Shown here in pieces: positions 17,018-52,164 of a stretch of 64,000 nucleotides of DNA. Origin of the DNA: Candidatus Staskawiczbacteria bacterium RIFCSPHIGHO2_01_FULL_39_25 (GTDB lineage Bacteria; Patescibacteriota; Minisyncoccia; Minisyncoccales; Staskawiczbacteraceae); assembly GCA_001820095.1 (NCBI GenBank), contig MHOO01000011.1, positions 199,227 through 263,226 of the forward strand. Reading direction: 5' to 3'. The number at the start of each line of letters is the position of its first letter. Positions within the stretch are counted from its first letter, which is position 1. A program made the position numbers and the translations under genes. The notes below the pieces were generated by a model, which did not search any database, was not told the DNA's origin, and saw nothing but the letters and a program-made list of their open reading frames with translations.

Positions 17018-17836
17018 ATGAAATTAAATTTTCTTACGAAACTCCTAGTCTTGAATTATGTTTTAGCCGTTGTTATGGTTGTGTTTTTGTATGTTTCTGG
17101 CATCCAAACTTCGCTTTTAAATAATTTATATGGGGTGCTATTTTTAGGATTTATTCCGCTCATCGGAGGCCTTAATGGGTTAATTCTCTCAAAGCACTGG
17201 GGATATTTTAAAAGTGCTATCGGTAAATCTATTATCTTTCTGTCACTGGGATTAATCTCTTGGGGTTTAGGCACATACATTTTTTCTGGTGTATATAATT
17301 TTTTACTTGGTGTAGCAGTACCGTATCCATCTATTGCAGATGTGGGGTACATTTTGAGTATCCCTCTTTGGATAATGGGGGTATTACAATTAGCTAAAGC
17401 TACTGGCGCCAAGTATGGATTGCGTTCGTTAAAGGGTAAATCCTTATTATTGATTATCCCGATATTAGTAATCGGTATTTCATATTATCTTCTTATCACG
17501 GTGGCACGGGATGGTGTAATTGATACTTCTGATTCAGAAATTTTAAAATTATTTTTTGACTTTGCTTATCCTGTAGGAGATTTATTAATCTTAACTGTGG
17601 TGACTCTTGTTTATTCTTTATCCTATAGATATTTAGGTGGGATATTTAAAAATGCTGTTTATTTAATATTATTAGGATTTATTTTAATGTATCTTGCTGA
17701 TTTTGCCTTTTCTTATACAACGACAACAGAAACTTTTTATCCTGCGAATTGGGTAGACCTTTTGTTTACTACAGCTATGTTTATTATAGTATTAGGCGTA
17801 TCGCAATTTACTCCTAAGACTGTTAATCAAGACTAA
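17018..17836 (+). CDS. integral membrane protein
   Basis: about eight hydrophobic segments; no catalytic motif recognised. Confidence 0.5.
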   Translation: MKLNFLTKLLVLNYVLAVVMVVFLYVSGIQTSLLNNLYGVLFLGFIPLIGGLNGLILSKHWGYFKSAIGKSIIFLSLGLISWGLGTYIFSGVYNFLLGVAVPYPSIADVGYILSIPLWIMGVLQLAKATGAKYGLRSLKGKSLLLIIPILVIGISYYLLITVARDGVIDTSDSEILKLFFDFAYPVGDLLILTVVTLVYSLSYRYLGGIFKNAVYLILLGFILMYLADFAFSYTTTTETFYPANWVDLLFTTAMFIIVLGVSQFTPKTVNQD

Positions 17837-17853: not shown

Positions 17854-18132
17854 ATGGTAACGTTTGCTCAAATCCCAATACGTATCATAAAAGAACAGGA
17901 ACTTATTATAGGTCCCTTGGCTTGGGATGAGGCACTTAAGGTGGGCGGGCTTACTATTGATCAATCGCACAGCTCTGTTTCTTTTGCCGGAGATGAAAAA
18001 GATGTCATAAACCGCCTGGTTGCCCAATACGAGCGGCTTTTTGGAAAAGCCTCCCACGAAGTCTGCAAAGAAGCCGTCCAAGATTTGATAGCCGAAATGG
18101 CGCCAGACCAGATACCATCTAGTTTGAAGTAA
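17854..18132 (+). CDS. small conserved hypothetical protein (recombination-target gene)
   Basis: 92-aa ORF ending APDQIPSSLK; 3' parts recur at 18802, 19788 and 23864; strong terminator downstream. Confidence 0.55.
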   Translation: MVTFAQIPIRIIKEQELIIGPLAWDEALKVGGLTIDQSHSSVSFAGDEKDVINRLVAQYERLFGKASHEVCKEAVQDLIAEMAPDQIPSSLK

Positions 18133-18283
18133 TTGATTGATTTTGCGATAATAGTACAAAACGGATCATGATCCGTTTTTTGCATTTTTATTAAAAAACC
18201 TTCATAATAAAAGAAAAATTTATGTCAGAACAACCAAGAAATAATAAAGAAGAAAATAGAGTACCAATAGATTATATAAAAGA
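18061..18283 (+). repeat. ~222-nt direct repeat, copy 1
   Basis: 3' end of the small gene + terminator + first ~20 codons of the methyltransferase gene; near-identical to 19789-20010. Confidence 0.8.
18157..18181 (+). terminator. rho-independent terminator
   Basis: aaaacggatcatgatccgtttttt palindrome plus T-run; duplicated at 19885-19908. Confidence 0.7.
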
Positions 18284-18306
18284 ATGGATTTTCTATTACA
18301 TAAATT

Positions 18307-18780
18307 ATGAATATTAAAATAAGAAAATTTAAAGATTCTGATATTTTAGGTGTTGTTTCTTTAATAAAAGAGACTTTTTATAAATATAATAAAAAAGAGG
18401 CAACTAAAACAGGGATTAAAAATTATCTTACTTACTACAGTATTAATAAAGATAATTTAGAAAAGGTTAAAATTAGTTTTTTAAAAACACCTATATTTTT
18501 TGTTGCTTTAGATAATAAGAAAATTGTAGGCATGATACGGGGTACAAAAAGTTATATGGTTAATCTTTTTGTTAATGGTAATTATCATAATCAGGGAATT
18601 GGTAGAGAATTAGTTAATAAATTTGAAAATGAGGCAAAAAAACAAGTTTCCAGTGAGATAAAAATAAGAGCTTCCTTATTTGCTGTGCCATTTTATCAAA
18701 AAATAGGTTATAAAAAAACTACAGGAATTAAAAACTATAAAGGCATAAAAGTATATCCAATGAAAAAATTAATATTTTAA
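18307..18780 (+). CDS. GNAT family N-acetyltransferase
   Basis: acetyl-CoA motif A NQGIGRELV; 157 aa. Confidence 0.8.
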   Translation: MNIKIRKFKDSDILGVVSLIKETFYKYNKKEATKTGIKNYLTYYSINKDNLEKVKISFLKTPIFFVALDNKKIVGMIRGTKSYMVNLFVNGNYHNQGIGRELVNKFENEAKKQVSSEIKIRASLFAVPFYQKIGYKKTTGIKNYKGIKVYPMKKLIF

Positions 18781-18801
18781 AAATATTAGAAAGGTGAATC
18801 A

Positions 18802-19036
18802 ATAGGGTCGGTCACCATTTATTATCAATTGATCAATCTCATAGTTCTGTTTCTTTCGCCGGAGATGAAAAAGATATTATAGAAATCCCCGCTGCTTCGC
18901 AGCTCTCTAATAATTTTTAAAGATTTATTTTCATTCTGTGAAAACTTTAAAAATTATTGGATTTATATATTTTCCTCCGCTGCGGCTCCGGGCAGGCATT
19001 CGCCTGAAAATATAAACCGCCTGGTTGCCCAGTATA
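18802..19036 (+). pseudogene. internal fragment of the 17854-18132 gene family, split by a 133-nt insert
   Basis: attgatcaatct..ggagatgaaaaagat and aaccgcctggttgcccagtat match 17950-18035; insert 18882-19014 carries several hairpins. Confidence 0.6.
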
Positions 19037-19224
19037 TTTTCATAAAAAAACGACTATCGCCGTTTTTTTATTTGCATTTCCGTTTGCATTTTTGTTACTA
19101 AAAAGGCAAAATAAGTTTACAAATGAAAATATGCCGGTACTGGAGCCTTTTGGTCTTTCAAATAAAGAATCAAGAGGTCATGATACACTTATGTATTTAT
19201 TGGAGAATAAAAAGTAAAAAAAGT

Positions 19225-19698
19225 ATGGCTCACATTAATGAACTCATCGATTTTACAATTGCTGTATATATTGTACATGATGATAAGGTCCTACTTATCC
19301 ATCACAAGCAACTTTTGAAATGGTTGCCTATTGGCGGCCATATCGAACTACACGAAGATCCCGAAGAAGCATTGTTTCGTGAAATTCAAGAAGAGTGCGG
19401 GCTTGAAGTAGAAGTCGCTGGGACAAAACAGACACTCAATGAAGTTGGCACAAAGTCTCTTTTGCCTCCCATATACTTGAATATTCACGATATCAAACTG
19501 CCTCATCGGCATGTTGGATTCATCTATTTTGCTAAGGCAAAATCGGATAAATTTGCCCATAACAAAGAGGAACACGATAATATCCGTTGGTTTACGGCGA
19601 ATGAGCTTTTAGATCCACAGTATGTGATTGGTGAATATGTTCGCTACTACGCCGAACAGGCTATTAAGTACTTCCATAAAGGAGAAAGTAATGCTTAA
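19225..19698 (+). CDS. Nudix hydrolase
   Basis: Nudix box GGHIELHEDPEEALFREIQEECGLEV; ATG 19225 in frame within ORF 19123..19698. Confidence 0.85.
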   Translation: MAHINELIDFTIAVYIVHDDKVLLIHHKQLLKWLPIGGHIELHEDPEEALFREIQEECGLEVEVAGTKQTLNEVGTKSLLPPIYLNIHDIKLPHRHVGFIYFAKAKSDKFAHNKEEHDNIRWFTANELLDPQYVIGEYVRYYAEQAIKYFHKGESNA

Positions 19699-19795
19699 GC
19701 TCGCTGTTATTGGTTTAGGGAAACGAGCTCTTAAGAGCCATATTCCCTCAGTTCTTGAAAGTGAAAAGTTTGATTTAGTCGCATTATATGTGTAA
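19691..19795 (+). pseudogene. 5' fragment of a Gfo/Idh/MocA-type oxidoreductase
   Basis: MLKLAVIGLGKRALKSHIPSVLESEKFDLVALYV* : Rossmann N-terminus cut at the repeat junction. Confidence 0.5.
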
Positions 19796-19859
19796 AGATG
19801 CAGTCCAAGATTTAATTGCTGAAATGCCTCCAGAACAAATCCCATCTAGTTTAAAATAA
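19788..19859 (+). pseudogene. 3' fragment of the 17854-18132 gene family
   Basis: encodes (M)CKDAVQDLIAEMPPEQIPSSLK*, matching the C-terminus of the full gene. Confidence 0.65.
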
Positions 19860-19948
19860 TTGATTGATTTTGCAATACTAGTACAAAACGGATCATGATC
19901 CGTTTTTTGCATTTTTATTAAAAAACCTTCATAATAAAAGAAAAATTT

Positions 19949-20611
19949 ATGTCAGAACAATCAAGAAATAGTAAAGAAGAAAATAGAGTACCAATAGATT
20001 ATATAAAAGACAAATATAATAAAATATATTCTGAAAACGAAGTTACTTTTGGTAAGGGTAAACCAGAAAAAATTATTGAGGATATAATCCAGTATTGTAC
20101 CTCTGGGTCGGTTTTAGAATTAGGTGCTGGTGAAGGAAGAAATTCTTTATTTTTAGCTGGACATGGGCTTGAAGTAACAGCAAAAGACATATCCGATGTA
20201 GGTGTAGATAAGATTAACAAGTTAGCAGAGGCGAAGGGTTTAAATATAAAAGCAGAAGTTGCAGATGTTAGTGATTTAAGTCTTGATAATAATTTTGATG
20301 TACTTATTTCTACTTTTATGTTGCATCATCTATCTCGCAGGGAAGCAATAAAGTTAATTGAGCAAATGAAGGAACATACAAATGTTGATGGATTAAATGC
20401 CATAACTGCCTTCACTAAAAATGGCGATTTTTTCAAAAGAAACCCTGAAACAGATGATTTTTATCCTGAAGAGGGAGAACTAAAAGATATATACTCGGAT
20501 TGGGAAATTTTAGAATACGAAGAAGTTGAAGGCGGGGCGTTTGACAAAAATCCAGATGGAAGTCCTATTTTAAATATATCTGCGAAAATATTAGCTAAAA
20601 AACTGAAATAA
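19949..20611 (+). CDS. class I SAM-dependent methyltransferase (TehB-like)
   Basis: motif I VLELGAGEGRNSLFLA, acidic AKDIS, FMLHHL; first ~20 codons duplicated at 18222. Confidence 0.8.
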   Translation: MSEQSRNSKEENRVPIDYIKDKYNKIYSENEVTFGKGKPEKIIEDIIQYCTSGSVLELGAGEGRNSLFLAGHGLEVTAKDISDVGVDKINKLAEAKGLNIKAEVADVSDLSLDNNFDVLISTFMLHHLSRREAIKLIEQMKEHTNVDGLNAITAFTKNGDFFKRNPETDDFYPEEGELKDIYSDWEILEYEEVEGGAFDKNPDGSPILNISAKILAKKLK

Positions 20612-20614
20612 AAA

Positions 20615-21235
20615 ATGAAACTATATTTAGTAAGGCATGGTCAAACAGAACACAACGCTTCATCATTACATCAAGATGAAAAAGTTGAATTGTCTAAGCA
20701 GGGTAAAAAACAAGCTATAATTCTAGCCAAAAGATTTTCAAAAATTCCCATAGAATTGATTTATTCCAGCCCAATGAATAGGGCCAGAAAGACTGCAGAA
20801 GTTATTAATAAAAAAATTAAAAAAGAAATTATCTATAGTGATTTTTTGAAAGAGTGGAAAAATCCATCGGAAGTTATTGATAAGAGCATTGATGATCCTG
20901 AAGTTAAAAAAATTCATGAACTGACCTATAAACATAGAGACGATCCTTTTTGGCACTATTCTGATGAGGAAAATTTTTTTGAATTTAAAAAAAGAGTTTT
21001 TAAATTCATTAATCTTTTAAGTAAAACTAAAAAAGAAAATATTTTAGCAGTAACCCATGGAGGCCCGATAAGAGTAATGATTCTTTTAATGATGCTTGGA
21101 GACAATATTAATGGAGATGATTTCAGAAAATTTAAATCCACATTCAGATTAGATAATACGGGCATAACTCTGTGCAAGAAAGAAAATGGGTACTGGGTAA
21201 TTCAAACCTTTAACGACCATTCTCACTTAGGTTGA
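20615..21235 (+). CDS. histidine phosphatase family protein (phosphoglycerate mutase-like)
   Basis: LVRHGQTEHN catalytic RHG motif and later THGGPIR. Confidence 0.85.
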   Translation: MKLYLVRHGQTEHNASSLHQDEKVELSKQGKKQAIILAKRFSKIPIELIYSSPMNRARKTAEVINKKIKKEIIYSDFLKEWKNPSEVIDKSIDDPEVKKIHELTYKHRDDPFWHYSDEENFFEFKKRVFKFINLLSKTKKENILAVTHGGPIRVMILLMMLGDNINGDDFRKFKSTFRLDNTGITLCKKENGYWVIQTFNDHSHLG

Positions 21236-21328
21236 TTCATTAATTTTATTTAAATAAATTTATAAGGAACTAATGGATATTGCTAAATTAAAGAAAATAT
21301 AGTATAGTCTTATTAGCTTCTTTGATAA

Positions 21329-22381
<1,053 letters not shown>

Positions 22382-22592
22382 AGGTAAACCCTTATGTTCT
22401 CAAGAGAGAATGTAGGGGTTTTTATATTTTATCTAATATCTTTTAAGAAAATTTACCAAATAAAATTCAAAATATAAGTGAACAAAATAAACTAAAAACT
22501 TGCAATAATTTAAAAGTATGTTACTATAATAAAAAAAGACGCCTATAGCAGGCTTGCCGAAAACTCAGGCCTTTGACAAAAGGAGCATTGGA

Positions 22593-23168
22593 ATGAATCT
22601 TGCACCAGAAATTGCAAAACCAGCTACTTCTACACTGTTGAAAAGATCACATGCCATTATTATCGCTGGGCCTGCGGGTGTTGGTAAGACGGCCGCCGCT
22701 CACTATCTGAAAGATGCCTTACATGCTCATCTTCCGTGGGTAGTAAGATATCTATCAGGAGATATGTATTCGCACATCTCATTTCCGTGGGTTGCGAATA
22801 CTGAGCAGCTTGATAGGAAGTATGATTGCCTCTGTTCTTCAATAGAACATCTGATCAGGAGGGATCATAACATTATTCTTGTTATGGATGATCTCTTCAG
22901 GAGAGACGAAGACTGGAGGCGTGTTCTTGATGCGCTAGATCGGAACGGTGTTTCTGCACAAACATTCCTCTTAGCTACAGAGTTGCCAGAACTACTTGCA
23001 AGGAATGCAAAACGTACTGGTTTCCAGAAAGCTTCGGAGGATCAGATCAGAGAAGCGTTTCGGTTGAGCAGTCTCATTAATTGGATACCATCCATTAGTG
23101 TATCCGCCGACCAGGAAACTGATAGCGTGGTGAAGGAAATCCTGAGTCTCTTTTTATGTAAAATATAA
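22593..23168 (+). CDS. P-loop NTPase, kinase-like
   Basis: Walker A GPAGVGKT, Walker B-like ILVMDD; aggag RBS before ATG 22593 (ORF track starts at 22554); GC-rich. Confidence 0.6.
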   Translation: MNLAPEIAKPATSTLLKRSHAIIIAGPAGVGKTAAAHYLKDALHAHLPWVVRYLSGDMYSHISFPWVANTEQLDRKYDCLCSSIEHLIRRDHNIILVMDDLFRRDEDWRRVLDALDRNGVSAQTFLLATELPELLARNAKRTGFQKASEDQIREAFRLSSLINWIPSISVSADQETDSVVKEILSLFLCKI

Positions 23169-23175
23169 AAAGAGA

Positions 23176-23208
23176 GCGCTGCCTAGTGATAGACAGCGCA
23201 TTTTTTTT
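23176..23208. terminator. bidirectional terminator between convergent genes
   Basis: gcgctg...cagcgc hairpin plus T8. Confidence 0.6.
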
Positions 23209-23223
23209 GGAACGACACTTATA

Positions 23224-23724
23224 CTAGCTGCTGCAACTGCACCAACCGTACACTTCGCACTCCTTGCAGTCCGGATTGCTGTGGACGTACTTGGAGTCAT
23301 CGGCGTGCTTGCGCTTCGGTTCGAGCCAGACAGGGTATGGTTCGCCAAACTCGGCCTTGTATAGCTCGATGGCGTTGAGGTACGCCGTGCGTTGCGGGCT
23401 TCCGGTAGTCGCATGGTGGACGAAAATTCCGAGACGACGGGACAGCTGGCGATAATCTTTCGTTTGAATGATCATCGCGTGCCACATCTCGTCCAACTGG
23501 TCCGAGGGCGTGATATTGTCTGCGTGGAAGCACGCGAGACAGAGAAACTTGAGCATTTCAACGAAATGCTCATTCGCCGTTTTCTGATCGAGGCCGAAGA
23601 TGCGAGCGTAGTAGCTGATCGCGCCTTCGTTTCGAAAGTCTTTCACGGTCTCGAAGAGTGCGGCGGGCGAGGACGGTCGCCGTGGTGATATGCCAATATT
23701 CCTCTCGAGGATAGCAGTGCTCAT
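23224..23724 (-). CDS. hypothetical protein with DExWH...HH motif (glycine-rich-domain-protein/DUF1399-like, tentative), Cys-rich tail
   Basis: DEMWHAMIIQTKDYRQLSRRLGIFVHHATTG; C-terminus NPDCKECEVYGWCSCSS; paralog of 24445-24945; GC-rich. Confidence 0.55.
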   Translation of the reverse strand: MSTAILERNIGISPRRPSSPAALFETVKDFRNEGAISYYARIFGLDQKTANEHFVEMLKFLCLACFHADNITPSDQLDEMWHAMIIQTKDYRQLSRRLGIFVHHATTGSPQRTAYLNAIELYKAEFGEPYPVWLEPKRKHADDSKYVHSNPDCKECEVYGWCSCSS

Positions 23725-23793
23725 AGAGCAGCTCCTTAAAGAACATTCTGAGATTTTGTTAGCGAAATTGCTAACCTAACCCCTTGATTAAAT

Positions 23794-23821
23794 ATTTTAC
23801 ATAAATTTAATACTTTGTCAA
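23794..23821 (-). promoter_or_regulatory. sigma70-like promoter for 23224-23724
   Basis: minus strand TTGACA, 16 nt spacer, TAAAAT; perfect palindrome gttagc-gaaatt-gctaac at 23758-23775 lies between promoter and start. Confidence 0.45.
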
Positions 23822-23863
23822 TAATTTTCGGTCTTTTTGCTTTCATCTCCACGATAATATCTT

Positions 23864-24006
23864 GAGACGAAAAAGATGTGATCAAGCGCCTGGTTGCCCA
23901 ATATGAACGGCTTTTTGGGAAAGCTTCCCACGAAGTGTGTAAGGAAGCCGTGCAAGACCTTATCGCCGAAATGGCGCCAGACCAGATACCATCTAGTTTG
24001 AAGTAG
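23864..24006 (+). pseudogene. GC-richer 3' fragment of the 17854-18132 gene family
   Basis: encodes DEKDVIKRLVAQYERLFGKASHEVCKEAVQDLIAEMAPDQIPSSLK*, almost the same peptide as the full gene but with synonymous G/C changes; own terminator at 24036-24057. Confidence 0.7.
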
Positions 24007-24058
24007 AATGCACAATATCAAGCAATGAATTTTTAAGTGGCTATACTGCCACTTTTTG

Positions 24059-24086
24059 TTGACAGAATCATCTTATGATGTATTAT
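24059..24086 (+). promoter_or_regulatory. sigma70-like promoter
   Basis: TTGACA, 16 nt spacer, TATTAT upstream of 24160. Confidence 0.45.
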
Positions 24087-24159
24087 AAATATAGAGAATT
24101 GCAGAACTCGGCATTGCGCAGAATTTGTGATTTCTACTGTTCTTTTAAGGAGGTATTTT

Positions 24160-24348
24160 ATGCTGACCGAATTGGAGAAAGAACGACTATGTCGTCTTCC
24201 TCTCGATCCTCAAATGTTTGATAAAGAGGATTGGAATGATCTTCAGTTTCGCCTTATGCGCGTTCTCGAAGAAGAGGAGATTTTTTCTTCTTATCAGGAA
24301 TTGTCATTAGTTCCAACTCCACCTCAAAATGGTGAGAATGTTCCATAA
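24160..24348 (+). CDS. small acidic hypothetical protein
   Basis: aaggagg RBS 7 nt before ATG 24160; in frame with ORF 24127..24348. Confidence 0.4.
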   Translation: MLTELEKERLCRLPLDPQMFDKEDWNDLQFRLMRVLEEEEIFSSYQELSLVPTPPQNGENVP

Positions 24349-24444
24349 CATTGACAATTCTCCATGAATGTTCAGAATTGAGTATAAGGTTTGGTAATGT
24401 GCCTTACCTTGAAGATTCCCTGTCCTTTTCACAAAGGAGTTCCA

Positions 24445-24945
24445 ATGACCGTGTATCGTGGGATCAAGATTACCAACAGCTGGGTTGCCACTTCATCGGG
24501 ACCTGGTGGTGGTACTCCCTCGAGGGCGAGTTCGCTCAAGGGTTGCAAGAAAGCGACTCTGGAAGAAGTGTTGGAGTACCAAAACTCCAACGTCGTTCTG
24601 CGAATTCAGAGGGAACTTGGGGTTGAAGTGTCCAAGGCACAGGAATTCTTCACTGATTTGAAGCGCTTCCTGTGGCTGGTTGCCAACTCCTCGGTTGAAT
24701 GTCTCGTTCCTAGTCCTGTCGTCGATGAGGCGTGGCATTCTTTTGTACTCTTCACGCAAGAGTACACCGACTTCTGCGATCGCTACTTCGGTCGCTTCAT
24801 CCATCATTCTCCCGTGCATCAGGGTGAAGCTCGGATGACCGCGGAAGATCTGCAGCCAACCATTGACGCAGTTCAAGCCGCATTCGGCGGGATCCCGTCA
24901 ACCAACTGGCACTACGTGCCGGTCAAGGAATTGCTTGCTGCATAG
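24445..24945 (+). CDS. hypothetical protein with DExWH...HH motif, paralog of 23224-23724
   Basis: DEAWHSFVLFTQEYTDFCDRYFGRFIHHSPV; aaaggag RBS before ATG 24445; terminator hairpin at 24958-24999. Confidence 0.55.
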   Translation: MTVYRGIKITNSWVATSSGPGGGTPSRASSLKGCKKATLEEVLEYQNSNVVLRIQRELGVEVSKAQEFFTDLKRFLWLVANSSVECLVPSPVVDEAWHSFVLFTQEYTDFCDRYFGRFIHHSPVHQGEARMTAEDLQPTIDAVQAAFGGIPSTNWHYVPVKELLAA

Positions 24946-25009
24946 TGAGCAATTCACATGCCCGCTTCTGATGAAAATCATGAGCGGGCTAATTTTTTAT
25001 AAAAACTAT

Positions 25010-25540
25010 ATGAATTATTTGTATCATCGAGTTCCAGAAAATATGCAAGGCAGTGTTTTGTATCCACTGAATGTAATAAAAGAAAAGTACCCCGAAATTT
25101 ACCAAAAGCAGGTTAGTAAATATGTGGGGCGGGAAGAATTAACCAAGCGCATTATTCCAATCTTAAATTGCCTATGGAGCGATGTATTGCATTTTTCTCC
25201 TGTACATCCTGCAGAAGTTAAAAAAGCCCTCATTGAAGCTGGGTGGTCTTCAGATTTTTCTATGCAATATTATCAAATTGATCCTAGAATACTGGAATCG
25301 AAAAATACTATTGTCTATTTTGCGAGTCCTGATAATAAAATAAATGATCCTAATCCAGATAATTTTATATCGTATAATCCCGCTGATTTAGAAAAGTTTT
25401 CTGTGATGCCAGAAAAAAATAAGCAGTACTACAAGGAAGTTATTAATCAGGGTGGACGGCCATTACTTTATCCTTGGATTACACACATTTTATATAAAGG
25501 TAGTATTAATATTACTGATTTTCCAATTATTTCTGTATAA
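25010..25540 (+). CDS. hypothetical protein
   Basis: ATG 25010 lies just after the upstream terminator, so the longer ORF 24863..25540 is unlikely; AT-rich. Confidence 0.5.
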   Translation: MNYLYHRVPENMQGSVLYPLNVIKEKYPEIYQKQVSKYVGREELTKRIIPILNCLWSDVLHFSPVHPAEVKKALIEAGWSSDFSMQYYQIDPRILESKNTIVYFASPDNKINDPNPDNFISYNPADLEKFSVMPEKNKQYYKEVINQGGRPLLYPWITHILYKGSINITDFPIISV

Positions 25541-25664
25541 CTATACATTTTTTAAGATAAATTCTCGGGTTAATTTTCAGATTTTTTTATAAACAACCAC
25601 AAACTAAAAAGCGGCTTTAAAACCGCTTTTTAGTTGTAATATTGTTTCTTATGTCTTAGTTGTT

Positions 25665-26165
25665 CTATTTATCTATTACTTTGTAAGAATAATTAAAATC
25701 TCTTTTTTTAACTTCAATAACAAAAAGATAGTCCTGTTCCTTGCCCTTGGATAACGGCTTTATATATTCGGCAACGCCCTGTGTATCTTCATTTGAAAAT
25801 CCAACACCCTCTAGGACATAAATATAACCTTTTTGCCGTATTACTTCTCCCTCAGGCTTTCCCTCAATAATAACTTCTTGAGAGTTGCCTTTATTGAGTC
25901 TATAATCTAGGTTAGTTTGACCAGGAAGGTTGTTTGGAAAGAGAGCCTTGATAATTGCCACTCCTCCGTCATCGGTAGCATGAAAAATTCCTCTCCCTGA
26001 AATTAATTTCTCACCTTGAGGAATAAGTGTTCCACTGCCATGAAATAAGTATCCTTTTTCTTTATTGAGCCAGTTTAAAAAATCTTCTAGCCTAGAAGAT
26101 GTGAAATTCTCATGTGAAATATATTTATGAGACAATCCTACATTAAGAATTTTTTCAAAATCCAT
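25665..26165 (-). CDS. hypothetical protein
   Basis: ORF track; bidirectional terminator at 25600-25635; no motif recognised. Confidence 0.5.
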   Translation of the reverse strand: MDFEKILNVGLSHKYISHENFTSSRLEDFLNWLNKEKGYLFHGSGTLIPQGEKLISGRGIFHATDDGGVAIIKALFPNNLPGQTNLDYRLNKGNSQEVIIEGKPEGEVIRQKGYIYVLEGVGFSNEDTQGVAEYIKPLSKGKEQDYLFVIEVKKRDFNYSYKVIDK

Positions 26166-26328
26166 TATATTTTTCTAAAGAAGCTTATTTTTATATTTTA
26201 ATTTTAAATCGCCCCGAGACTTTATACAAGTCTCGAGTTTGAAATAATGATAAAACAATTTAAAGATAATAATCAGTTCAAATGCTTTGTATTATTTACT
26301 TTTTCCCCATTTGAATTATGATAAGTCT

Positions 26329-26919
26329 ATGATTGAAGTAGAGAAGAAGTTTATCTTAACCCCAGAGCAAGAAAAAAGCCTTATTGAAGGGGCTGAATTT
26401 TTAGGTGAGAAACAATTTACTGATATTTATTACGACGACAAGGATTTTTCATTAACTACCAAAGATATTTGGTTTCGCCAAAGGGATGGAAGATTTGAAT
26501 TAAAACTTCCTATGAACGTTTCTTTGGAAGAAAGGGTTTCAGACCAATACAAAGAAATAGAAGATGAAAAAGAAATAAAAAAGTATTTTAATTTTAATAA
26601 TGATGCTAGCTTGTCGGATTTATTAAAAGAGAGGGAATACGAATCATTTTGCATTATGACGACTATAAGAAAAAAATACAAAAAAGAAGATTTTGGGATA
26701 GATATGGATATTGTGGATTTTGGTTATGCTATTGCTGAAATAGAATATATGGCCCAAGACAATTCAAATTTACAACAGGCAACTGATAAAATTATTGAAT
26801 TTGCAAAGAAACATAATCTGACGTTTGATGAATTAACACGGGGAAAGGGGTCTGAATACATAAGAAGAAATAATCCAAAGCATTTCCAAGCACTTATTGA
26901 TGTGAAAGTAATTAAATAA
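26329..26919 (+). CDS. CYTH-domain protein (triphosphate tunnel metalloenzyme-like)
   Basis: N-terminal MIEVEKKF (ExExK signature); ATG 26329 in frame with ORF 26287. Confidence 0.6.
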   Translation: MIEVEKKFILTPEQEKSLIEGAEFLGEKQFTDIYYDDKDFSLTTKDIWFRQRDGRFELKLPMNVSLEERVSDQYKEIEDEKEIKKYFNFNNDASLSDLLKEREYESFCIMTTIRKKYKKEDFGIDMDIVDFGYAIAEIEYMAQDNSNLQQATDKIIEFAKKHNLTFDELTRGKGSEYIRRNNPKHFQALIDVKVIK

Positions 26920-26924
26920 AAACC

Positions 26925-27425
26925 ATGGAATTATTACCCGTAAAACCATTTCAAGAAACTCTTTTTAAGAGTATGTGTGGGCCAGCAAGCCTCAAAATGG
27001 TTTTTGATTACTATGGAATTGAGAAAAGTGAAGAAGAAATTGCTAAACTGGCTGGAACCACCGAAGATTTGGGCACAGACGAGGAAGGCATTAAGAAAGC
27101 AGTCGAAAGTTTAGGATTTAAAATAGAAATCAAAAATAATTCTACTTTTGAAGATATAGAAGGCTTTTTGAATAAAAAAATACCAGTCATGGTAAACTGG
27201 TTTACCAGAGGCAGAATAGATTATGATGATTCCCAAGTCCCTGATGGTCATTATTCAGTTGTTGTGGGATTGGATGACGAATTTATTTACCTCCAAGATC
27301 CAGAGATAGGAAAGTTACGGAAAATTGAAAGAAGTGATTTTATGAAAGTTTGGTTTGATTTCAAAGGAGAATATATTAAGTCTAATGAACTCATAATCAG
27401 GCAGATTATTGCAATTTTTCAATAA
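26925..27425 (+). CDS. C39-like papain-fold cysteine peptidase domain protein
   Basis: catalytic Cys context SMCGPASLKMV and His context DGHYSVVVG. Confidence 0.65.
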   Translation: MELLPVKPFQETLFKSMCGPASLKMVFDYYGIEKSEEEIAKLAGTTEDLGTDEEGIKKAVESLGFKIEIKNNSTFEDIEGFLNKKIPVMVNWFTRGRIDYDDSQVPDGHYSVVVGLDDEFIYLQDPEIGKLRKIERSDFMKVWFDFKGEYIKSNELIIRQIIAIFQ

Positions 27426-27546
27426 ATAAGATAGACCATAGGCAGCCTTTTATCTTCAACCTAAACTTTTGGAAGGACGAGCGAAGCTAACCACTTCGCT
27501 TTTTATTTTGTGGTATAATAAAATAATTACTTAAATTTCATACATT

Positions 27547-28923
27547 ATGTTTGGATTTGGCCAGCGTAAAAAAATTACCGAAAAGCTTTACGAACAGAAT
27601 CTTGAGCTTGCGGTGAAAAATAAAACACTTTCCCTCCTTGAAAAGTTGTATCAAACGAGTGTTTTGACCCTGATGCCAGAAGAAATGGCAAGGGAAATAA
27701 CCGATACGATTCGCAAAGACTTGAATCTTGAGTTTGCGGGCGTGTTGATATTCAACAAAGAGTCTGATGCTTTAATACCTCTGGTTTTTTCTAAATCTGA
27801 AAGGCTCGTCAATACGTTGCAAAAGTTAGGCTTTCTTTTGCGGGATGTAACAATAACTAATATTTCAAAGCGGGATTTTTTTAAGCAAGTTGTATATGCT
27901 CAAAAAGAAAATATAACTGATAATATTGAAGAGGTCTGGGAGGAACTTGTAAAACAAGAACATTTACAAGAAATAAAGAAAGCGTCACATATTAAAACGG
28001 TATTGCTGTATCCGCTTATCAAAGGCAAAGAAGCGCTTGGGGTGTTAATATTGGGCCTTAACCGTGACTATCAGACGCTTAATACATTTGAAAAAGCCTC
28101 TATAAAAAGTTTTATCAATGTGATAGCCCTTTTGCTTGATAAGGCATACTTGTATAAAGACTTGCAGGATTCTTATGAAATAACCAAAAAGGCATACGCG
28201 GTTGAAAAACAAGCTAAAGAAGAATTAGAGCAATTAGATAAAATAAAAGACCAGTTTCTTGCCCAGACCCAGCATGATTTGCGTACGCCTCTGACTTCTA
28301 TTATGGGTTATAGTGATCTTCTTTTGGGGGGCACGTTTGGAAAATTGTCTAAAAAAACTACTGAAATAATACAAAAAATACAACTGTTGACGAATGGAAT
28401 GATTAAGAAAGCAAATAACTTTTTGGATTTAGCCCAATTCCAGCTTGGTAAATCTGCCGTTGAGTTGAAACCCGATGTACCGGTGTTGTCTATATTAGAA
28501 GAGATAAAAACCGAACTTGAATTTAAAGCCCAGTCAAAAGGAGTCTCTTTGGATTTAGAAAAGCCAAAACAGGAGCTTATGATCAACGCTGATAGGGAAA
28601 AATTAAAAGCTGCGCTGTTTAATATTGTTGATAACTCAATTAAATATACCCCAAAAGGAGGCGTGACAATAAAAATAGAAAATCACACGAGTGTTAAAAT
28701 TATTATTTCAGATACCGGCATTGGTATTTCTAGGGAAAGAGTTGGAACCATTTTTGAAACTATGTTTGACCGGTCTGAACAGGCTAAAAAAACGGCCACG
28801 GGCATTGGCGTAGGCTTATACCTTTCAACCCAAATTATCAAGGCGCACCAAGGCAAGGTTTGGGCGGAATCAGAAGGAGAGGGGAAGGGATCTACGTTTT
28901 ACATTGAATTACCTCTGGTCTAG
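27547..28923 (+). CDS. cytoplasmic sensor histidine kinase with GAF-like N-terminal domain
   Basis: H-box HDLRTPLTSIMGYSDLL, N-box NIVDNSIKYTP, G1 DTGIGI, G2 GIGVGLYL; no TM segment. Confidence 0.85.
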   Translation: MFGFGQRKKITEKLYEQNLELAVKNKTLSLLEKLYQTSVLTLMPEEMAREITDTIRKDLNLEFAGVLIFNKESDALIPLVFSKSERLVNTLQKLGFLLRDVTITNISKRDFFKQVVYAQKENITDNIEEVWEELVKQEHLQEIKKASHIKTVLLYPLIKGKEALGVLILGLNRDYQTLNTFEKASIKSFINVIALLLDKAYLYKDLQDSYEITKKAYAVEKQAKEELEQLDKIKDQFLAQTQHDLRTPLTSIMGYSDLLLGGTFGKLSKKTTEIIQKIQLLTNGMIKKANNFLDLAQFQLGKSAVELKPDVPVLSILEEIKTELEFKAQSKGVSLDLEKPKQELMINADREKLKAALFNIVDNSIKYTPKGGVTIKIENHTSVKIIISDTGIGISRERVGTIFETMFDRSEQAKKTATGIGVGLYLSTQIIKAHQGKVWAESEGEGKGSTFYIELPLV

Positions 28924-29043
28924 GGTATAGGCCGTCAATTTTTTTTTGGTGTGATTTATAGGATTGTCTTTTTGATAGTTTTTGGTATGGTCAGTTAAGC
29001 TAAAAATTAATTTGTAAAAATATGAGCGGATTTTCTAAAAATT

Positions 29044-30405
29044 ATGATAAGTAAAAAAAACTTTTTGTCATTCGCACATGTTAATCAAGAAGTCATAAAA
29101 GAGAAGTTGGCCTATACTGAAGTTTCTTTTGATTCTGATATTGGATGGTTAAAGTATTTTGTTTCCGAAACACCCAACGGGGTACTTTTCCAGAAAAATA
29201 TTCTCTATGATATTGTTTGTAGTCAAAAAGTTTATCTAGCTCACATCACCACAAATTTACCAGCTATTCAGGCAGAAGGAAGACTGTTATCGAGCAGTGG
29301 ATGTTTGGTTGGTAGTATTTATAGCACACCGGTAATTCAAGAGGGCGAGAATTTTAGATTACACAATCTAGGGGAATATATTCTTCTAAAAGAAGCTCCT
29401 GCTTTCAGTAAAAACAAAAATGTTTGCCCATTATTAGTTGAGCTAGAATTTTCACATCCAGCGATCCGTCCAGCAGTAGGCGTCGACTATCTTAAACTTG
29501 GCCAAGTTCACTTTGATATTTTCTCTGAGCTAAGCTACCTGCTATCTCATCATGAATTGGAAGAATTGAATCTATCAACCATAAATTCTATTCGTAAAAT
29601 CAGCAACTTACTAATAGTAGTCGGGAAGCACAGTCCTGAATCTATCTTGAAAAATTTCGGCAAATTTTATGAGTTATATTTGTGTGCCATAAGTGATTCG
29701 CCTATTCTCGGGTATATATTATTTGAGGTGTTGTGTGAATATATCGCCCTATTTCAAAGGGGAGAACGAGTAGAACGATATAAAGAAAAAGGCGAGCTTT
29801 ACTGTTCAAACTTCAAAAGCATGTTATTTGAAATCTGTCCCAATGTCACAACATCTTTTAATCTCGGCCTTTTTCGTCCAGAATTGAGTAGGATTAAAAG
29901 TTATATAGCCACAATGGCAATTTCTAGCAATGATAAACTATCCTTTGAACAATTTCTTGCCAAGCGCTTACATTATCTGATATCTGGACGTTTCTACCGT
30001 ACTGACAGCGATGAGAATTTAAAAAAATCTTTTTGGGAGAATATCGAATGGAATCTGCCATATTTACAACATCAACTTGCGCCGTTGCTCGGTCACACTA
30101 TCCACCGTTTTCTGAGAAATATGAAGCGATACCCCAACTTCTATTTTTATTTTGATCAATATAAAGCACTACAAGTATGGAACTATTGGAATCAAGCTTC
30201 AATAGCATTACCTTACAATGCCATATTACCAAAAGGAGAGATAGGTATTAATCCCGCAAATCCATATATGAAATATTCTGTCTATACAGCTAAATCTTAT
30301 CAAAAGGATGGTTTGACTTACTTAACAAAAGATAAAAAAATTCAAATAACCATTGAGCCTCGGCTGACCGAATTAAATATGTCGTCGATGAGAAAAAAGA
30401 TATGA
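29044..30405 (+). CDS. hypothetical protein (453 aa)
   Basis: first gene of four overlapping co-directional genes; no motif recognised. Confidence 0.55.
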   Translation: MISKKNFLSFAHVNQEVIKEKLAYTEVSFDSDIGWLKYFVSETPNGVLFQKNILYDIVCSQKVYLAHITTNLPAIQAEGRLLSSSGCLVGSIYSTPVIQEGENFRLHNLGEYILLKEAPAFSKNKNVCPLLVELEFSHPAIRPAVGVDYLKLGQVHFDIFSELSYLLSHHELEELNLSTINSIRKISNLLIVVGKHSPESILKNFGKFYELYLCAISDSPILGYILFEVLCEYIALFQRGERVERYKEKGELYCSNFKSMLFEICPNVTTSFNLGLFRPELSRIKSYIATMAISSNDKLSFEQFLAKRLHYLISGRFYRTDSDENLKKSFWENIEWNLPYLQHQLAPLLGHTIHRFLRNMKRYPNFYFYFDQYKALQVWNYWNQASIALPYNAILPKGEIGINPANPYMKYSVYTAKSYQKDGLTYLTKDKKIQITIEPRLTELNMSSMRKKI

Positions 30406-31163
30406 AAAAAAGACAAGCAGAACTTACATATCGTAAAGTAAAACAAATAGATAAATTCACGAAACAACTGTTGAAAAACAAACAACTCCAACCGGCGTTT
30501 TATATTACATTGCTACAATTACAAAAAGACACAAACGCGGCGCTGTCTTTCTGGAACAGTGTTCGGAATAACAAAACACAAAAAAACAAACCTGAGGTCG
30601 CCAGTAGTGATAAGCTACAGATTGGGGGCGGTAAACGTTATATGCACGGGTTTGTTAATCTTGATATATTTCCACCAGCAGATATTATCTGGGATTCTCG
30701 TTATGGTTTGCCGTTCCAAAAGGATACCTTTAGTTTTATTTTTTCTGAACATTTTCTTGAACATCTTGATTTCCCAATTTCTGTAAATTGTGTGCTGCAA
30801 GAAATCTACAGGATATTGAAACCAAGTGGGAAAGTAGTGATTGGGGTTCCCGATGGTGGGAAAGTGATTAAAGCATACGGTGAAAGAAATAAAAAATTTT
30901 TACACAAACTAAGACAACAAGCTTACAATAGACGCCAACTACCAATCGAAACCTATAGCGATATTGATTTGGTAAATTACCTCTTCCGCGATCAATTAGA
31001 AAACCCCAACTATACCATTCATTATTGGGCATACGATAAAAATTCTTTGGAGAATATTTTACGTTCTGTTGGTTTCAAAAAAGTGGAGAAATACCCCTTC
31101 AACCCTTTATATTGTAATCCAAAGAGAAAATTCTTTACCCTGTATCTACAAGCAGCCAAGTGA
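30402..31163 (+). CDS. class I SAM-dependent methyltransferase
   Basis: QIGGGKRYMHGFVNLD and ILKPSGKVVIGVPD; 4-nt overlap with upstream gene. Confidence 0.65.
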   Translation: MKKRQAELTYRKVKQIDKFTKQLLKNKQLQPAFYITLLQLQKDTNAALSFWNSVRNNKTQKNKPEVASSDKLQIGGGKRYMHGFVNLDIFPPADIIWDSRYGLPFQKDTFSFIFSEHFLEHLDFPISVNCVLQEIYRILKPSGKVVIGVPDGGKVIKAYGERNKKFLHKLRQQAYNRRQLPIETYSDIDLVNYLFRDQLENPNYTIHYWAYDKNSLENILRSVGFKKVEKYPFNPLYCNPKRKFFTLYLQAAK

Positions 31164-31164
31164 T

Positions 31165-31917
31165 ATGAATTTACGCGAACAATTATTAAACTCTCCAAAA
31201 CCACCTCATCAATTTCACGATGCGGATTCCATAGAATGGCTTTCGCTTAATCGCCCAGAGTTTCTTCCAAAAATATATAAACTTAAACAGTCTTTTGTTG
31301 AAATTGTTGAGAGAAAAAAACCATGGGAAAGATGCAATAATGATTGGTTTACAAATAAACTAATCAGAGATGGTATTCATGGGTTTCGCCATGTATGTCG
31401 AGTGGCTATTTATTCAATATCACTGGCCCTACAGGCAAGACCAGAGATATCTGAACAAGAAATAGAAGCCCTGATTTTTGCCGCATTATTACATGACTGT
31501 CGAAGAGTAAATGATAATGCCGACTTCCGACATGGAGTAAGAGCCAAAGAATGGCTCGGTAAAAACAATCATATTTTGCCAAAAAAACTACAGCCGTTAT
31601 ACAAAGCAATACATTTTGCTATAGCCGTTCATAATGATCAGTATGATCAAATAATTAGAAAGGTAAATTATCAAAAATTTAAATTTTTTGTAGACATTCT
31701 TAAAACCGCAGATGCTTTAGACAGGTATCGTTTTCCCAGGGAAGACTGGTGGTTAAAAAATGAATTTGTTGTTCTAATTCCCAACCAACAGAATATGGCT
31801 TTTGCGTATGATCTGGTCTTGGGGTGTGAGAGACTATTCTTACAGACGAAAGACAATCAAGGTTCGGTAGAAAGAGCTTGGAAAAAATTAAATCAGGATA
31901 ATTATGCGAACAGGTAA
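31165..31917 (+). CDS. HD-domain protein
   Basis: GFRHVCRV...AALLHDCRR metal-binding H...HD pattern; ATG 31165 two nt after upstream stop, in frame with ORF 31069. Confidence 0.6.
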   Translation: MNLREQLLNSPKPPHQFHDADSIEWLSLNRPEFLPKIYKLKQSFVEIVERKKPWERCNNDWFTNKLIRDGIHGFRHVCRVAIYSISLALQARPEISEQEIEALIFAALLHDCRRVNDNADFRHGVRAKEWLGKNNHILPKKLQPLYKAIHFAIAVHNDQYDQIIRKVNYQKFKFFVDILKTADALDRYRFPREDWWLKNEFVVLIPNQQNMAFAYDLVLGCERLFLQTKDNQGSVERAWKKLNQDNYANR

Positions 31918-32563
31918 TACAAGAAAAGAAATTTTCACCACTATCTATAAAACTCACCACTGGAAGTCTTCTGAGTCTGTGTCAGGACCGGGTTCAGAAT
32001 TGTGTCAAACCGAAAGTTTGCGTTATGCGCTTCCCATTATTTTTAAAAAATACAATATCAAGACAGTACTCGATATTCCGTGCGGTGATTTTAACTGGAT
32101 GCGATACGTAAATATGAGCTATCTCGACCGTTATGTGGGTGCTGATATAGTGAAAGATATTGTACAGGATAATTCTAAACTTTATACAAATCAAAAAGTA
32201 TCTTTTCAAAAAATTGATATCGTGGAAGATACGCTTCCAATGGTTGATCTTGTATTTACTCGAGATTGTTTTGTCCACTTATCCAATATTGAAGTTTTAG
32301 ATGCAATAAAGAACATTGCAAAAAGCAAATCGAAATACTTTTTATCAACTACATACCAAAATCATTCTAAAAACGAGGATACTTCTCAAGGAAAATGGAG
32401 GCCCATAAATCTTAATCGGACACCATTCAACCTACCACCATACATTGACTATATAGATACAGATTTTCAAGATAGCGGTAAAAATTATCCGGGTAATGGT
32501 TTGGGATTATGGCGTATAGAAAATTTGCTGTTCCTCAAAATTGACATTATGACGCCAAAATGA
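31904..32563 (+). CDS. class I SAM-dependent methyltransferase
   Basis: HWKSSESVSGPGSE...VLDIPCGDFNWM, a pattern seen in glycan-cluster methyltransferases; overlaps upstream gene by 14 nt. Confidence 0.6.
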   Translation: MRTGNTRKEIFTTIYKTHHWKSSESVSGPGSELCQTESLRYALPIIFKKYNIKTVLDIPCGDFNWMRYVNMSYLDRYVGADIVKDIVQDNSKLYTNQKVSFQKIDIVEDTLPMVDLVFTRDCFVHLSNIEVLDAIKNIAKSKSKYFLSTTYQNHSKNEDTSQGKWRPINLNRTPFNLPPYIDYIDTDFQDSGKNYPGNGLGLWRIENLLFLKIDIMTPK

Positions 32564-32612
32564 TAGCGTTAAAGTAGATCGTTCAAAATAAACCACAAAG
32601 TAAGGAGAATGT

Positions 32613-33164
32613 ATGAAAAAACAAATCGAAATTGAACATCGTGCGCGCTTCTCGAAAGAAGAGCGTGACCAGTTGCTATCTTTCCTACAAGAGAACGGCA
32701 AGGACATTGGGGAAGACGATAAGAACGTCTATTTCTTTACCCTTCCCGATAAGCTCTTGAAGGTAACGGATAATATCTCCAAAAACACCGCCAAAATCAC
32801 CGGTAAAATGGGTAGAATTGGTGAAGGCAGTGGATTCGAAGAGATAGAGTTTCCTATTGAGAGAACGGACGTGTTGAAGGCGGTCGAACTCTTTAAAAAG
32901 TTCGGTTTCACTAATGTACACGATTCGTTCCAAAGTCGTCATAATTTCGAGTACAAAGATGTAGAAATTGCCCTCAAGTACAGTGAAATGTGGGGGTATC
33001 ATGCTGAATTTGAGATCGTGATTGATGACGAAACGAAAAAGGGTGTAGCCGACCAAAAGATTATGAGTGTTGCCAAAGAACTTGGTGTGAGGCTCATGAC
33101 CGAAGAAGAACTCAAAGTGTTTATCCGGCAGAAGGAAATCGAGATTAAGTCTGCTCGTTCATAG
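32613..33164 (+). CDS. CYTH-domain protein (CyaB/ThTPase-like)
   Basis: N-terminal IEIEHRARF ExExK-type signature, 183 aa; intermediate GC. Confidence 0.55.
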   Translation: MKKQIEIEHRARFSKEERDQLLSFLQENGKDIGEDDKNVYFFTLPDKLLKVTDNISKNTAKITGKMGRIGEGSGFEEIEFPIERTDVLKAVELFKKFGFTNVHDSFQSRHNFEYKDVEIALKYSEMWGYHAEFEIVIDDETKKGVADQKIMSVAKELGVRLMTEEELKVFIRQKEIEIKSARS

Positions 33165-33269
33165 CCGCATCGTTTCGATTAAACAGAATGATGTGGCTTT
33201 TTTTTGCAAAGAAAAAGCCCTGTCCAGTTGCGATAACTAGACAGGGCCGTCGTCCAGATTAGACGATTG

Positions 33270-34196: not shown

Positions 34197-34538
34197 TTAA
34201 GACACTTCCTTTCCAAAAATGTTTTTGCTGAATTCTCTGTAAGCATAGATTGATCCTTCCAGAATTACCACAAGGTCAGCGATCTTTGCGACAGCTTGTT
34301 TTTCATCCCACGATACCCAGATCTACTGATAGTGTTGATCCTTCTAGACCACGAAGGAATAGACCGGATGGTTTGTTTTTCCGTCAACTGACAGAACGAA
34401 CGAGTGTCCGTTTTGCAGTTGAGCAACCAAATCCGTCCATGCCCTTCTTTGGTATTGGGCAAATTGCCGCAGGACAGAACTTTTTGTGCAATCCTCACGA
34501 ATAAAATCCTTTGTAAAAAGAACTAAGGGAGCTAGCAC
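34197..34538 (-). pseudogene. upstream ORF translationally coupled to the NDK-like gene, interrupted by two in-frame TAG codons
   Basis: one frame reads through to TAA-ATG junction with the NDK start; TAG at 34344-34346 and 34323-34325; no frameshift. Confidence 0.4.
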
Positions 34539-34562
34539 TATGCCAACTTTACCTTTGATGGT

Positions 34563-34591
34563 AGTATATACTAACAAGCTTTATTTGTCAA
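34563..34591 (-). promoter_or_regulatory. sigma70-like promoter for the 34538-33270 unit
   Basis: minus strand TTGACA, 17 nt spacer, TATACT. Confidence 0.5.
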
Positions 34592-34860
34592 ATCTTATGT
34601 ACATTCGTCAAGCGTTGTATACACCTTTTTCTTAAAAGCTCGTTCAAAACCTATAAAAAGCGTAACCAACCCGCTAGAAATGTACAAAAGTAATAAAAGC
34701 ATGCATCTAAAACAGAGAACAGAGTTTTACACAGCTCTGTTCTTTTTTGCTGTGTTGTTACGTAGTATAATAAATGAATAATCGGGTAGTCTCCCAATTT
34801 GGAGCTAGGCTTAGCCTAGCTCTAACCTAAGATAAGACCCTTATGTTTGCGCATATCTAA

Positions 34861-43691: not shown

Positions 43692-43693
43692 TA

Positions 43694-51979: not shown

Positions 51980-52164
51980 TAGAGCAATAAAAATATACTG
52001 CGGGCTGTGGATAAGCTATTGACACGTTGCATGGTATAATAAGAGTGTAGAGTCATGGAACCTAATCTGTCCTATGGCCCTTTAAAGACGTTTTACGAAT
52101 AATCGAGTGAAACCAGTATTCTAAATATCTGGCAAAGGTCGATGTATTTTAAAACATTATTCTT

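Follow-up and report, generated by a model that had tools for sequence, protein, structure and literature searches.

Displaced gene tails at a conserved gene–kinase junction suggest serial gene acquisition by homologous recombination in Candidatus Staskawiczbacteria

Candidatus Staskawiczbacteria are ultra-small groundwater bacteria of the Candidate Phyla Radiation (CPR)/Patescibacteria. In a stretch of 64,000 nucleotides from one of them (bacterium RIFCSPHIGHO2_01_FULL_39_25; contig MHOO01000011.1, positions 199,227 to 263,226; hereinafter the window, to which coordinates refer unless another locus is named), we studied a gene of 92 codons, here termed g92 (17854-18132, + strand), whose displaced 3' ends recur downstream of it, ahead of a histidine kinase gene that directly adjoins it in most relatives. 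We favor the view that this g92–kinase junction, in Staskawiczbacteria and in some other Patescibacteria, is probably a gene-transfer hotspot free of mobile elements, at which homologous recombination is anchored in g92 and the acquired DNA is otherwise joined illegitimately. The original prediction that this small gene acts as an attachment or homology anchor for successive cargo capture is thus supported on several counts: the codon-position pattern of the displaced tails, the cargo shared with another lineage, the truncation of genes at the junctions and the variable starting points of the fragments.

A tblastn search of the whole window with the 92-amino-acid product of g92 recovered, besides the full-length gene (copy 1, residues 1-92), three partial copies downstream on the same strand and nothing else of significance, bearing out the earlier claim that the 3' end of the gene recurs downstream on one strand. 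Copy 2 lies in two pieces, the first corresponding to residues 33-52 (18822-18881, +; E 9e-8) and the second to residues 52-59 (19012-19035, +), with residues 60-92 missing; its description as a partial copy of the middle region stands, but its start and the length of its insert had been put at 18802 and 133 nt, rather than 18822 and 130 nt (18882-19011). Copy 3 comprises residues 71-92 and the stop codon (19791-19859, +; E 3e-10), and begins at 19791, or perhaps at a possible start at residue 67 (19779). Copy 4, found at 23864-24006 (+) as predicted, comprises residues 47-92 and the stop codon (tblastn match 23866-24006, 98% amino acid identity, E 8e-27). In a self-search with all open reading frames (ORFs) of the window, no other gene left a comparable trail of fragments. 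The alternative that the copies are independent paralogs fails, as they lack 5' parts and are located inside the inserted region described below.

The differences between the displaced copies and the full genes are concentrated at third codon positions. Relative to copy 1, copy 4 carries 16 differences, distributed over codon positions 1, 2 and 3 as 1/0/15, in agreement with the many synonymous substitutions noted for it earlier, copy 3 carries 13 (1/0/12), and the first piece of copy 2 carries 10 (3/0/7). For fragments in relatives, whose loci are denoted here by L numbers, the corresponding counts against the full gene are 3/3/22 in L121, and 3/1/28 and 3/0/13 for the first and second fragments of L113. 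When pooled, 97 of the 115 differences lie at third positions and 18 (16%) at the first two, as against 27% in a control set of 95 intact ortholog pairs of similar divergence and the 40-50% or more expected of neutral decay in place (binomial P < 1e-8 against decay). This concentration implies that the tails diverged under protein-level selection in other lineages, with little decay since, and the test with its ortholog control contradicts decay in place as the sole explanation. Further, the amino acid variants of the fragments fall inside the natural variation of the family. We also considered the GC content at third codon positions (GC3) of the two halves of g92 as a marker of a foreign tail; the 3' half exceeds its neighbors by 0.23, which is only at about the 90th percentile of 144 relatives and not decisive, and this marker was dropped.

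The repeated sequence does not stop with the coding region. The repeat shared by copies 1 and 3 measures 220 nt (18064-18283 versus 19791-20010, 92% identical) and passes the stop codon by 151 nt, running via a terminator hairpin into approximately the first 20 codons of a TehB-like methyltransferase. Behind copy 1, the non-coding tail (18133-18283, +) includes a hairpin (18158-18179), a promoter-like site and a methyltransferase start that is cut off at 18283; behind copy 3, the equivalent tail (from 19860, +) includes a hairpin (19885-19906) and a promoter-like site, and here the TehB-like methyltransferase gene is intact (19949-20611, +; Pfam). These tails (18133-18283 versus 19860-20010) are 97.4% identical (4 of 151 positions differ), in contrast to 81% for the adjoining g92 coding part. 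Copy 4 has signals of its own, namely a terminator hairpin (24035-24054, +), as the original prediction held, and a promoter-like site (24059-24086, +; 11 of 12 matches), such that copies 1, 3 and 4 are each trailed by a terminator-like hairpin and then a promoter-like site. Since each fragment retains a terminator and a promoter of its own, an arrangement native to the clade, the moving unit is probably a g92 tail followed by terminator, promoter and cargo. Sharp transitions in identity also separate parts of the copies: the last 42 nt of copies 1 and 4 are identical, whereas the preceding 100 nt carry 16 differences (16%), and in L095 the final 50 nt of the g92 repeat are identical and the remainder differs by about 20%. 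Such transitions are what crossovers or conversion tracts leave.

The cargo between the copies provides a second line of evidence for exchange. The segment 19224-19783, which spans a Nudix hydrolase gene and the start of an oxidoreductase gene, is 84% identical at the nucleotide level to L113, with the Nudix gene itself reaching 90% amino acid and 84% nucleotide identity; the membrane-protein neighbor in L113 is 45% identical in amino acids to that of the window. The oxidoreductase that follows the Nudix gene in L113 is far more complete, reading as two overlapping ORFs in different frames, and this GFO_IDH_MocA homolog corroborates the earlier identification of the window sequence as an oxidoreductase fragment. 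In the window, only some 33 codons of it are left, and it breaks off precisely at the start of copy 3; a possible 6-nt overlap (GTCGCA) at this join might conceivably be microhomology of the kind (3-10 bp) that marks illegitimate junctions. Genes are thus truncated at two junctions: the methyltransferase around codon 20, the oxidoreductase around codon 33. Likewise, L104 and L113 share an MNT gene, which in L104 lies directly behind g92. The inserted blocks also differ widely in composition, with GC3 ranging from 0.13 in a GNAT acetyltransferase gene to 0.71 in a gene for a UCP032817-like protein, and copy 3 standing at 0.17.

Our survey took in 143 distinct g92 loci, drawn from metagenomes and species-representative genomes; the kinase was in reach in 111 of them. 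In 94 of these 111 (about 85%), the kinase directly follows g92; in 16 loci, 0.6-7 kb intervene between the two, and another four lack a kinase within 3-10 kb. In a lineage with a 95%-identical g92 protein, the order is membrane protein, g92, a gap of 12 nt, the HisKA/HATPase_c kinase and type IV pilus genes, with no island. Direct adjacency of g92 and the kinase is therefore best read as the ancestral state. DNA alignment against L011, in which the homology of the window breaks at 18143 and 27545, places the island between g92 and the kinase at 18144-27544 (9.4 kb). Hence, the region 17854-24006 delimited by the original prediction holds as a hotspot, but not its end coordinate, as the inserted region runs about 3.5 kb further, to 27544.

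The expanded cases cluster in the Staskawiczbacteria-like clade and are present elsewhere too, and the cargo inserted at the junction varies across at least 16 lineages. At least seven other lineages carry their own additional 3' fragments of g92 at the same spot: two fragments each in L021/L112 and in L113; one each in L050/L177, L095, L098 and L121, that of L121 standing directly before the kinase's terminator and promoter; and a fragment alone in L172/L174, on a contig without the full gene. In all cases the fragments follow the full gene and share its strand, every one except copy 2 of the window reaches the stop codon, and no 5' fragments of g92 were seen at the loci surveyed. The partial repeats measure about 70-220 nt in the window and about 120-165 nt in L095, L098, L113 and L121. 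The cargo of the relatives includes ParE-type and MNT/HepT toxin–antitoxin pairs, Nudix, MazG and ITPase-like enzymes, methyltransferases, a small coiled-coil protein and Peptidase_S51. The arrangement is hence not a fixed one among relatives, with the kinase 12 nt behind g92 in one and other cargo and tails in others, as the original prediction called for.

The breakpoints vary. Fragments begin at residues ~23, 33, 45-47, 50-53, 58, ~61 and 70-72, and a single array can combine several starting points (33, 70 and 47 for the window; 45 and 58 for L113); the displaced copies do not share a start nucleotide of the kind that a common crossover core would give. A Pfam search of the whole 64-kb window found no integrase, transposase or homing endonuclease, in line with the earlier observation that no integrase is visible, and neither the window nor the islands examined had a match to Phage_integrase, resolvase or rve. 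In the insertions of relatives, whether searched with Pfam or read as ORFs, there was no integrase, and the sole recombination enzyme was an IS1595-type transposase remnant in L107 (9963-10328), right behind g92, beyond which the gene order is lost. Apart from sequence derived from g92, a repeat search turned up no family of short repeats at the edges of the modules, where Xer/dif-type modules would have 28-bp dif-like sites (no dif model was run). The variable breakpoints, the truncated junction genes and the absence of a recombinase gene together favor host homologous recombination over a site-specific enzyme; the original prediction's suggestion of homology-facilitated recombination gains support from the varied fragment starts and the lack of any recombinase gene found. 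As for a phage or viral origin, a viral contig collection contained neither the g92 protein pattern, nor a degenerate DNA pattern of the g92 tail, nor the conserved end of the 130-nt insert of copy 2, and we rejected this possibility.

Briefly, we advance the following plausible mechanism. The high DNA-level conservation of g92 would let DNA of other lineages pair with it. Incoming DNA would bring a g92 3' end, terminator and promoter, along with the cargo lying behind g92 in the donor. Homologous recombination would then join this DNA inside g92, and its other end would be joined illegitimately, often in the resident g92. As a result, g92 would stay intact with a new tail, and the old tail and older cargo would be displaced downstream. 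Repetition of such events, along with homologous exchange or gene conversion between copies and small deletions, might then yield the present stack of units. Alternatively, a circular DNA with a truncated g92 tail might enter by a single crossover, with equivalent products. We infer RecA dependence, natural transformation as the mode of DNA entry, the linear or circular route and the order of events; entry by transformation draws on the literature on Patescibacteria, which generally keep the genes for competence and homologous recombination and whose gene exchange is mostly within the group (PMC12455944), and on the finding that hotspots free of mobile elements go along with transformability in general (PMC5635113). 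The locus has the features of such hotspots that were tested, being bounded by core genes and variable in content, with no integrase or transposase in the window and with signs of recombination in g92. The homologous segment beside the insert is also partly duplicated, a product known from E. coli, where a single crossover with a truncated homologous segment gives partial duplications of 109-950 bp (PMC3240628).

Several points weigh against this mechanism. Classical one-sided homology-facilitated recombination mostly deletes recipient DNA rather than duplicating it (PMC3240628); duplications therefore require either that the DNA be joined within the anchor or that it pass through a circular form, neither of which was observed. 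Among the 180 fetched loci and 120 homologous proteins, no close donor was found for copies 3 and 4, their best nucleotide matches being 82-88% identical; since no donor genome was found for these copies, the direction and order of events were not reconstructed. No presence or absence variants of the segments were seen in this population among the contigs compared. The two g92 fragments of L021 are 100% identical over about 125 nt, including a palindrome within them, which points to a recent duplication or to one sequence having been reused. Finally, the conserved structured inserts in two of the fragments are not explained by the mechanism that we favor.

An unlikely, though not negligible, alternative is that the units are integrase-driven islands for which the 3' end of g92 is the attachment site, each carrying a replacement tail, with the integrases since lost or acting from elsewhere. 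The layout resembles that of tandem tRNA/tmRNA islands, with an intact gene followed by displaced 3' ends in one orientation. The target gene is likewise restored, as the full g92 is intact in every genome with fragments (the L172/L174 contig having only the fragment) and the fragments are foreign alleles. Further, copy 3 and fragments A and B of L021 all start within codons 70-72, and the search for enzymes in this genome covered 64 kb of it. Against this, the starts as a whole are spread over codons 23-72, even inside a single array; cargo genes are cut at the junctions, unlike in a precise site-specific reaction; no integrase occurs in the window or in the examined insertions of relatives; and the viral contig collection lacks g92 sequence.

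A more doubtful possibility arises from the structured inserts themselves. The 130-nt element of copy 2 (18882-19011, +) is inserted in codon I52, with the codon ATA on both sides, and a homologous element stands at the same codon of a g92 fragment in L113 (10886-11015). Between these two, 8 of 34 base pairs are compensatory and none is broken. L021 in turn carries twice, at 4891-4951 and 7624-7684, a 61-nt palindrome with a perfect outer stem of 12 bp and two inner hairpins, located exactly between the part identical to the resident gene and the diverged, foreign part. The insert of copy 2 is, to judge by its covariation, a conserved structured element and not random filler. Searches with Rfam, at gathering or relaxed thresholds, gave no match for it, and a covariance model recovered it solely in the window and in L113, although 1.8 Mb of related loci were covered; we accordingly rejected a known RNA family and a common repeat as its identity.

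Such inserts might be the true recombination sites, recognized in trans as folded single strands in the manner of integron attC sites or IS200/IS605-type ends; we regard this as improbable. In its favor, both elements fold as DNA much more strongly than shuffled sequences do (z -6.3 for the 130-nt element and -6.9 for the palindrome), the helices of the former are preserved by compensatory changes across two distant lineages, the palindrome marks the resident/diverged boundary in a unit present twice in identical form, and toxin–antitoxin pairs, GNAT and Nudix genes are typical cargo of integron cassettes. However, copies 3 and 4, the fragments of L095, L098 and L121, and the second fragment of L113 have no such element, and none stands between individual cargo genes. 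Moreover, the two elements are mutually unrelated and lie at different codons (52 and 79), the boxes of the palindrome (GTTAAAT...ATTTAAC) are in the reverse of the attC order, no IntI or TnpA gene is present, and the Rfam and related-locus searches gave the negative results stated above. By the same token, it is a long shot that the g92 tail and its folded inserts are the recognition site of an undescribed CPR cassette-capture system acting on folded single-stranded DNA, with its recombinase encoded elsewhere; if true, a protein-coding gene would here underlie a device akin to an integron.

We consider it very improbable that the g92 region was duplicated in tandem in place, the extra copies then losing their 5' parts and drifting. 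Direct repeats on one strand are expected of tandem duplication, and the identical fragments of L021 resemble a recent internal duplication. However, the codon-position test speaks against drift, the blocks between the copies span the whole GC3 range given above, cargo is common to the window and a distant lineage, and the non-coding tail of the 220-nt repeat is far more similar than its coding part, none of which sits well with such a history.

The arrangement is also found in independent assemblies. The g92 product has an exact counterpart among the proteins of Candidatus Staskawiczbacteria GCA_001820275.1, whose contig MHPB01000013.1 matches 7854-28132 of the window base for base. Copies 1-3, or all four, are covered at 99.7-100% identity by the NCBI contig, by an ENA scaffold and by several megahit contigs assembled from separate samples of the same aquifer. 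Because these independent contigs agree, we take the arrangement to be real and fixed in the population. The contigs of three independent assemblies (L004, L007 and L009) end at 18781-18889, at copy 2, and a fourth (L005) has a small indel at 18839-18865, inside copy 2, which may reflect strain heterogeneity. A chimera, in which the assembler stitched strain variants serially at shared k-mers, is rejected as next to impossible, for although the g92 copies share exact stretches of 22-42 nt and three contigs end near copy 2, independent assemblies agree across the copies, and unrelated genomes sampled at other sites show structures of this kind too.

The anchor gene itself belongs to a conserved neighborhood. 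Its homologs number 886, many of them over 75% identical; they are very conserved in Patescibacteria and unannotated, and g92 has no family match in Pfam or NCBIfam. Its AlphaFold2 model has a pLDDT of 94, and a fold search found no more than a weak resemblance to H-NOX sensors, in their N-terminal half (E 0.28), which is a lead only; on the basis of the model, the protein may be an accessory protein of the kinase. A multi-pass membrane protein (17018-17836, +), with no Pfam or NCBIfam family, precedes g92 in nearly all of about 160 related loci. Conservation extends to the whole triad of membrane protein, g92 and histidine kinase (about 160 Patescibacteria loci), which often stands ahead of type IV pilus genes. 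In the window, the HisKA/HATPase_c kinase (27547-28923, +) forms the right border of the island. Ahead of it lie a terminator hairpin (27479-27501, +) and then an extended -10 motif, TGTGGTATAAT, and this pair (27479-27520) is kept upstream of the kinase across the Staskawiczbacteria-like clade (L117, L121, L125, L102 and L173). Homology to relatives resumes at about 27490-27545, and the island ends at the kinase's own predicted terminator and promoter.

From left to right, the cargo of the island begins with the GNAT acetyltransferase (18307-18780, +; Acetyltransf_10, E 8e-23), which is followed, beyond copy 2, by the Nudix hydrolase (19228-19698, +; NUDIX, E 3e-16) and the remnant of the GFO/IDH/MocA oxidoreductase (19691-19790, +). 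Behind copy 3 and the intact methyltransferase come a histidine phosphatase (20615-21235, +; His_Phos_1) and a GC-rich block (21341-23724) with a GC3 of 0.40-0.71, as compared to 0.22-0.37 in native neighbors. Assigned by Pfam and NCBIfam, this block comprises TrpRS (21341-22381, +), a P-loop AAA_33 protein (22554-23168, +) and a UCP032817-like protein (23224-23724, -). Copy 4 is followed by a second UCP032817-like protein (24391-24945, +), two ORFs of no assigned function (one ending at 25540, +; the other at 25665-26165, -), a CYTH protein (26287-26919, +; Pfam) and a Peptidase_C39 protein (26925-27425, +; Pfam). The GNAT, Nudix, methyltransferase, histidine phosphatase, TrpRS and P-loop genes named in the original prediction were all recovered by Pfam. 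A search for defense systems in the cargo with PADLOC gave weak hits only. In many other Parcubacteria, including L090, L150, L171 and L095, TrpRS sits just downstream of the kinase; the island TrpRS thus belongs to this neighborhood, and appears to have been relocated or replaced here.

Some observations concern other parts of the window and its relatives. Between the kinase and PilB there is a second insertion zone (28914-34852), where relatives have about 60 nt; it holds a 453-amino-acid protein without assignment, two methyltransferases, one HD and one CYTH protein and, on the minus strand, a GC-rich NDK-TPR gene, and no fragments of the flanking genes were seen in it. Outside the island, the 1.1-kb stretch 3027-4135, encoding a 277-amino-acid protein of no known family, is 92.6% identical to L011 (4384-5492), where core genes reach about 70-74%; this identity suggests that lineages living side by side have recently exchanged it. 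Two class II aminoacyl-tRNA synthetase paralogs of the Asp/Asn/Lys type stand head to head (4428-5732, -; 5870-7195, +); they are 53.5% identical and differ clearly in GC content (0.49 versus 0.39), and one of them may be foreign. An ORF of 82 amino acids (51742-51990, +) has a 50%-identical partial match at 43692-43895 (-), about 8 kb away. In L104, a region right behind g92 (~1175-1370) has the form of a miniature inverted-repeat transposable element, of about 200 nt with inverted-repeat ends of about 28 nt.

To our knowledge, genetic study of the CPR/Patescibacteria is not yet possible, and gene gain in them has been inferred mostly from composition. At the g92–kinase junction, each displaced tail would offer a dated and donor-tagged footprint of one acquisition, left without a mobile-element enzyme, and the locus suggests itself as natural evidence for homologous recombination with illegitimate joins in these bacteria. 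Small accessory genes, such as those for toxin–antitoxin pairs, Nudix and other nucleotide-cleaning enzymes and methyltransferases, are shown by it to circulate among lineages via a single landing site, and the order membrane protein–g92–kinase could be used as a marker for accessory gene pools in metagenomes. The general principle is known from cultured bacteria; the advance lies in documentation and event-by-event resolution in an uncultured lineage, and is not one of kind.

Among known systems, integron cassette arrays and integrase-less attC clusters resemble the island in their small accessory genes, mostly in one orientation, in similar cargo and in structured elements at some boundaries. 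However, the island has no integron head of intI, attI and promoter, its upstream neighbor being the conserved membrane protein; there is no attC-like site after each gene, as no repeated structured family and no Rfam hit was found between the cargo genes; and its repeats are pieces of a protein-coding gene. The locus is not an integron. Tandem islands built by tyrosine recombinases at the 3' ends of tRNA, tmRNA or protein genes share with it the replacement 3' end, the displaced ends in one orientation and the cargo between them, but differ in that here no integrase was found, the breakpoints vary with no fixed crossover core, and cargo genes are truncated. Homology-facilitated illegitimate recombination and single-crossover integration (PMC3240628) are alike in having one homologous anchor, gene-cutting junctions and no dedicated enzyme, and the partial duplication of the homologous locus, at about 70-220 bp here, compares with the 109-950 bp of the E. 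coli experiments; in contrast to those laboratory events, the events here are fixed in natural populations, serial at one locus and spread over several lineages. The mobile-element-free hotspots (Oliveira et al. 2017, PMC5635113) likewise present a variable block between conserved core genes with high turnover among relatives, no integrase or transposase (for our part, in this window), recombination signals in the flanking core gene and presumed natural transformability. The g92–kinase junction departs from them in that one end of each event is illegitimate rather than part of a clean double crossover, and in that its left core gene leaves behind a stack of displaced 3' ends that records the separate events and their donors.

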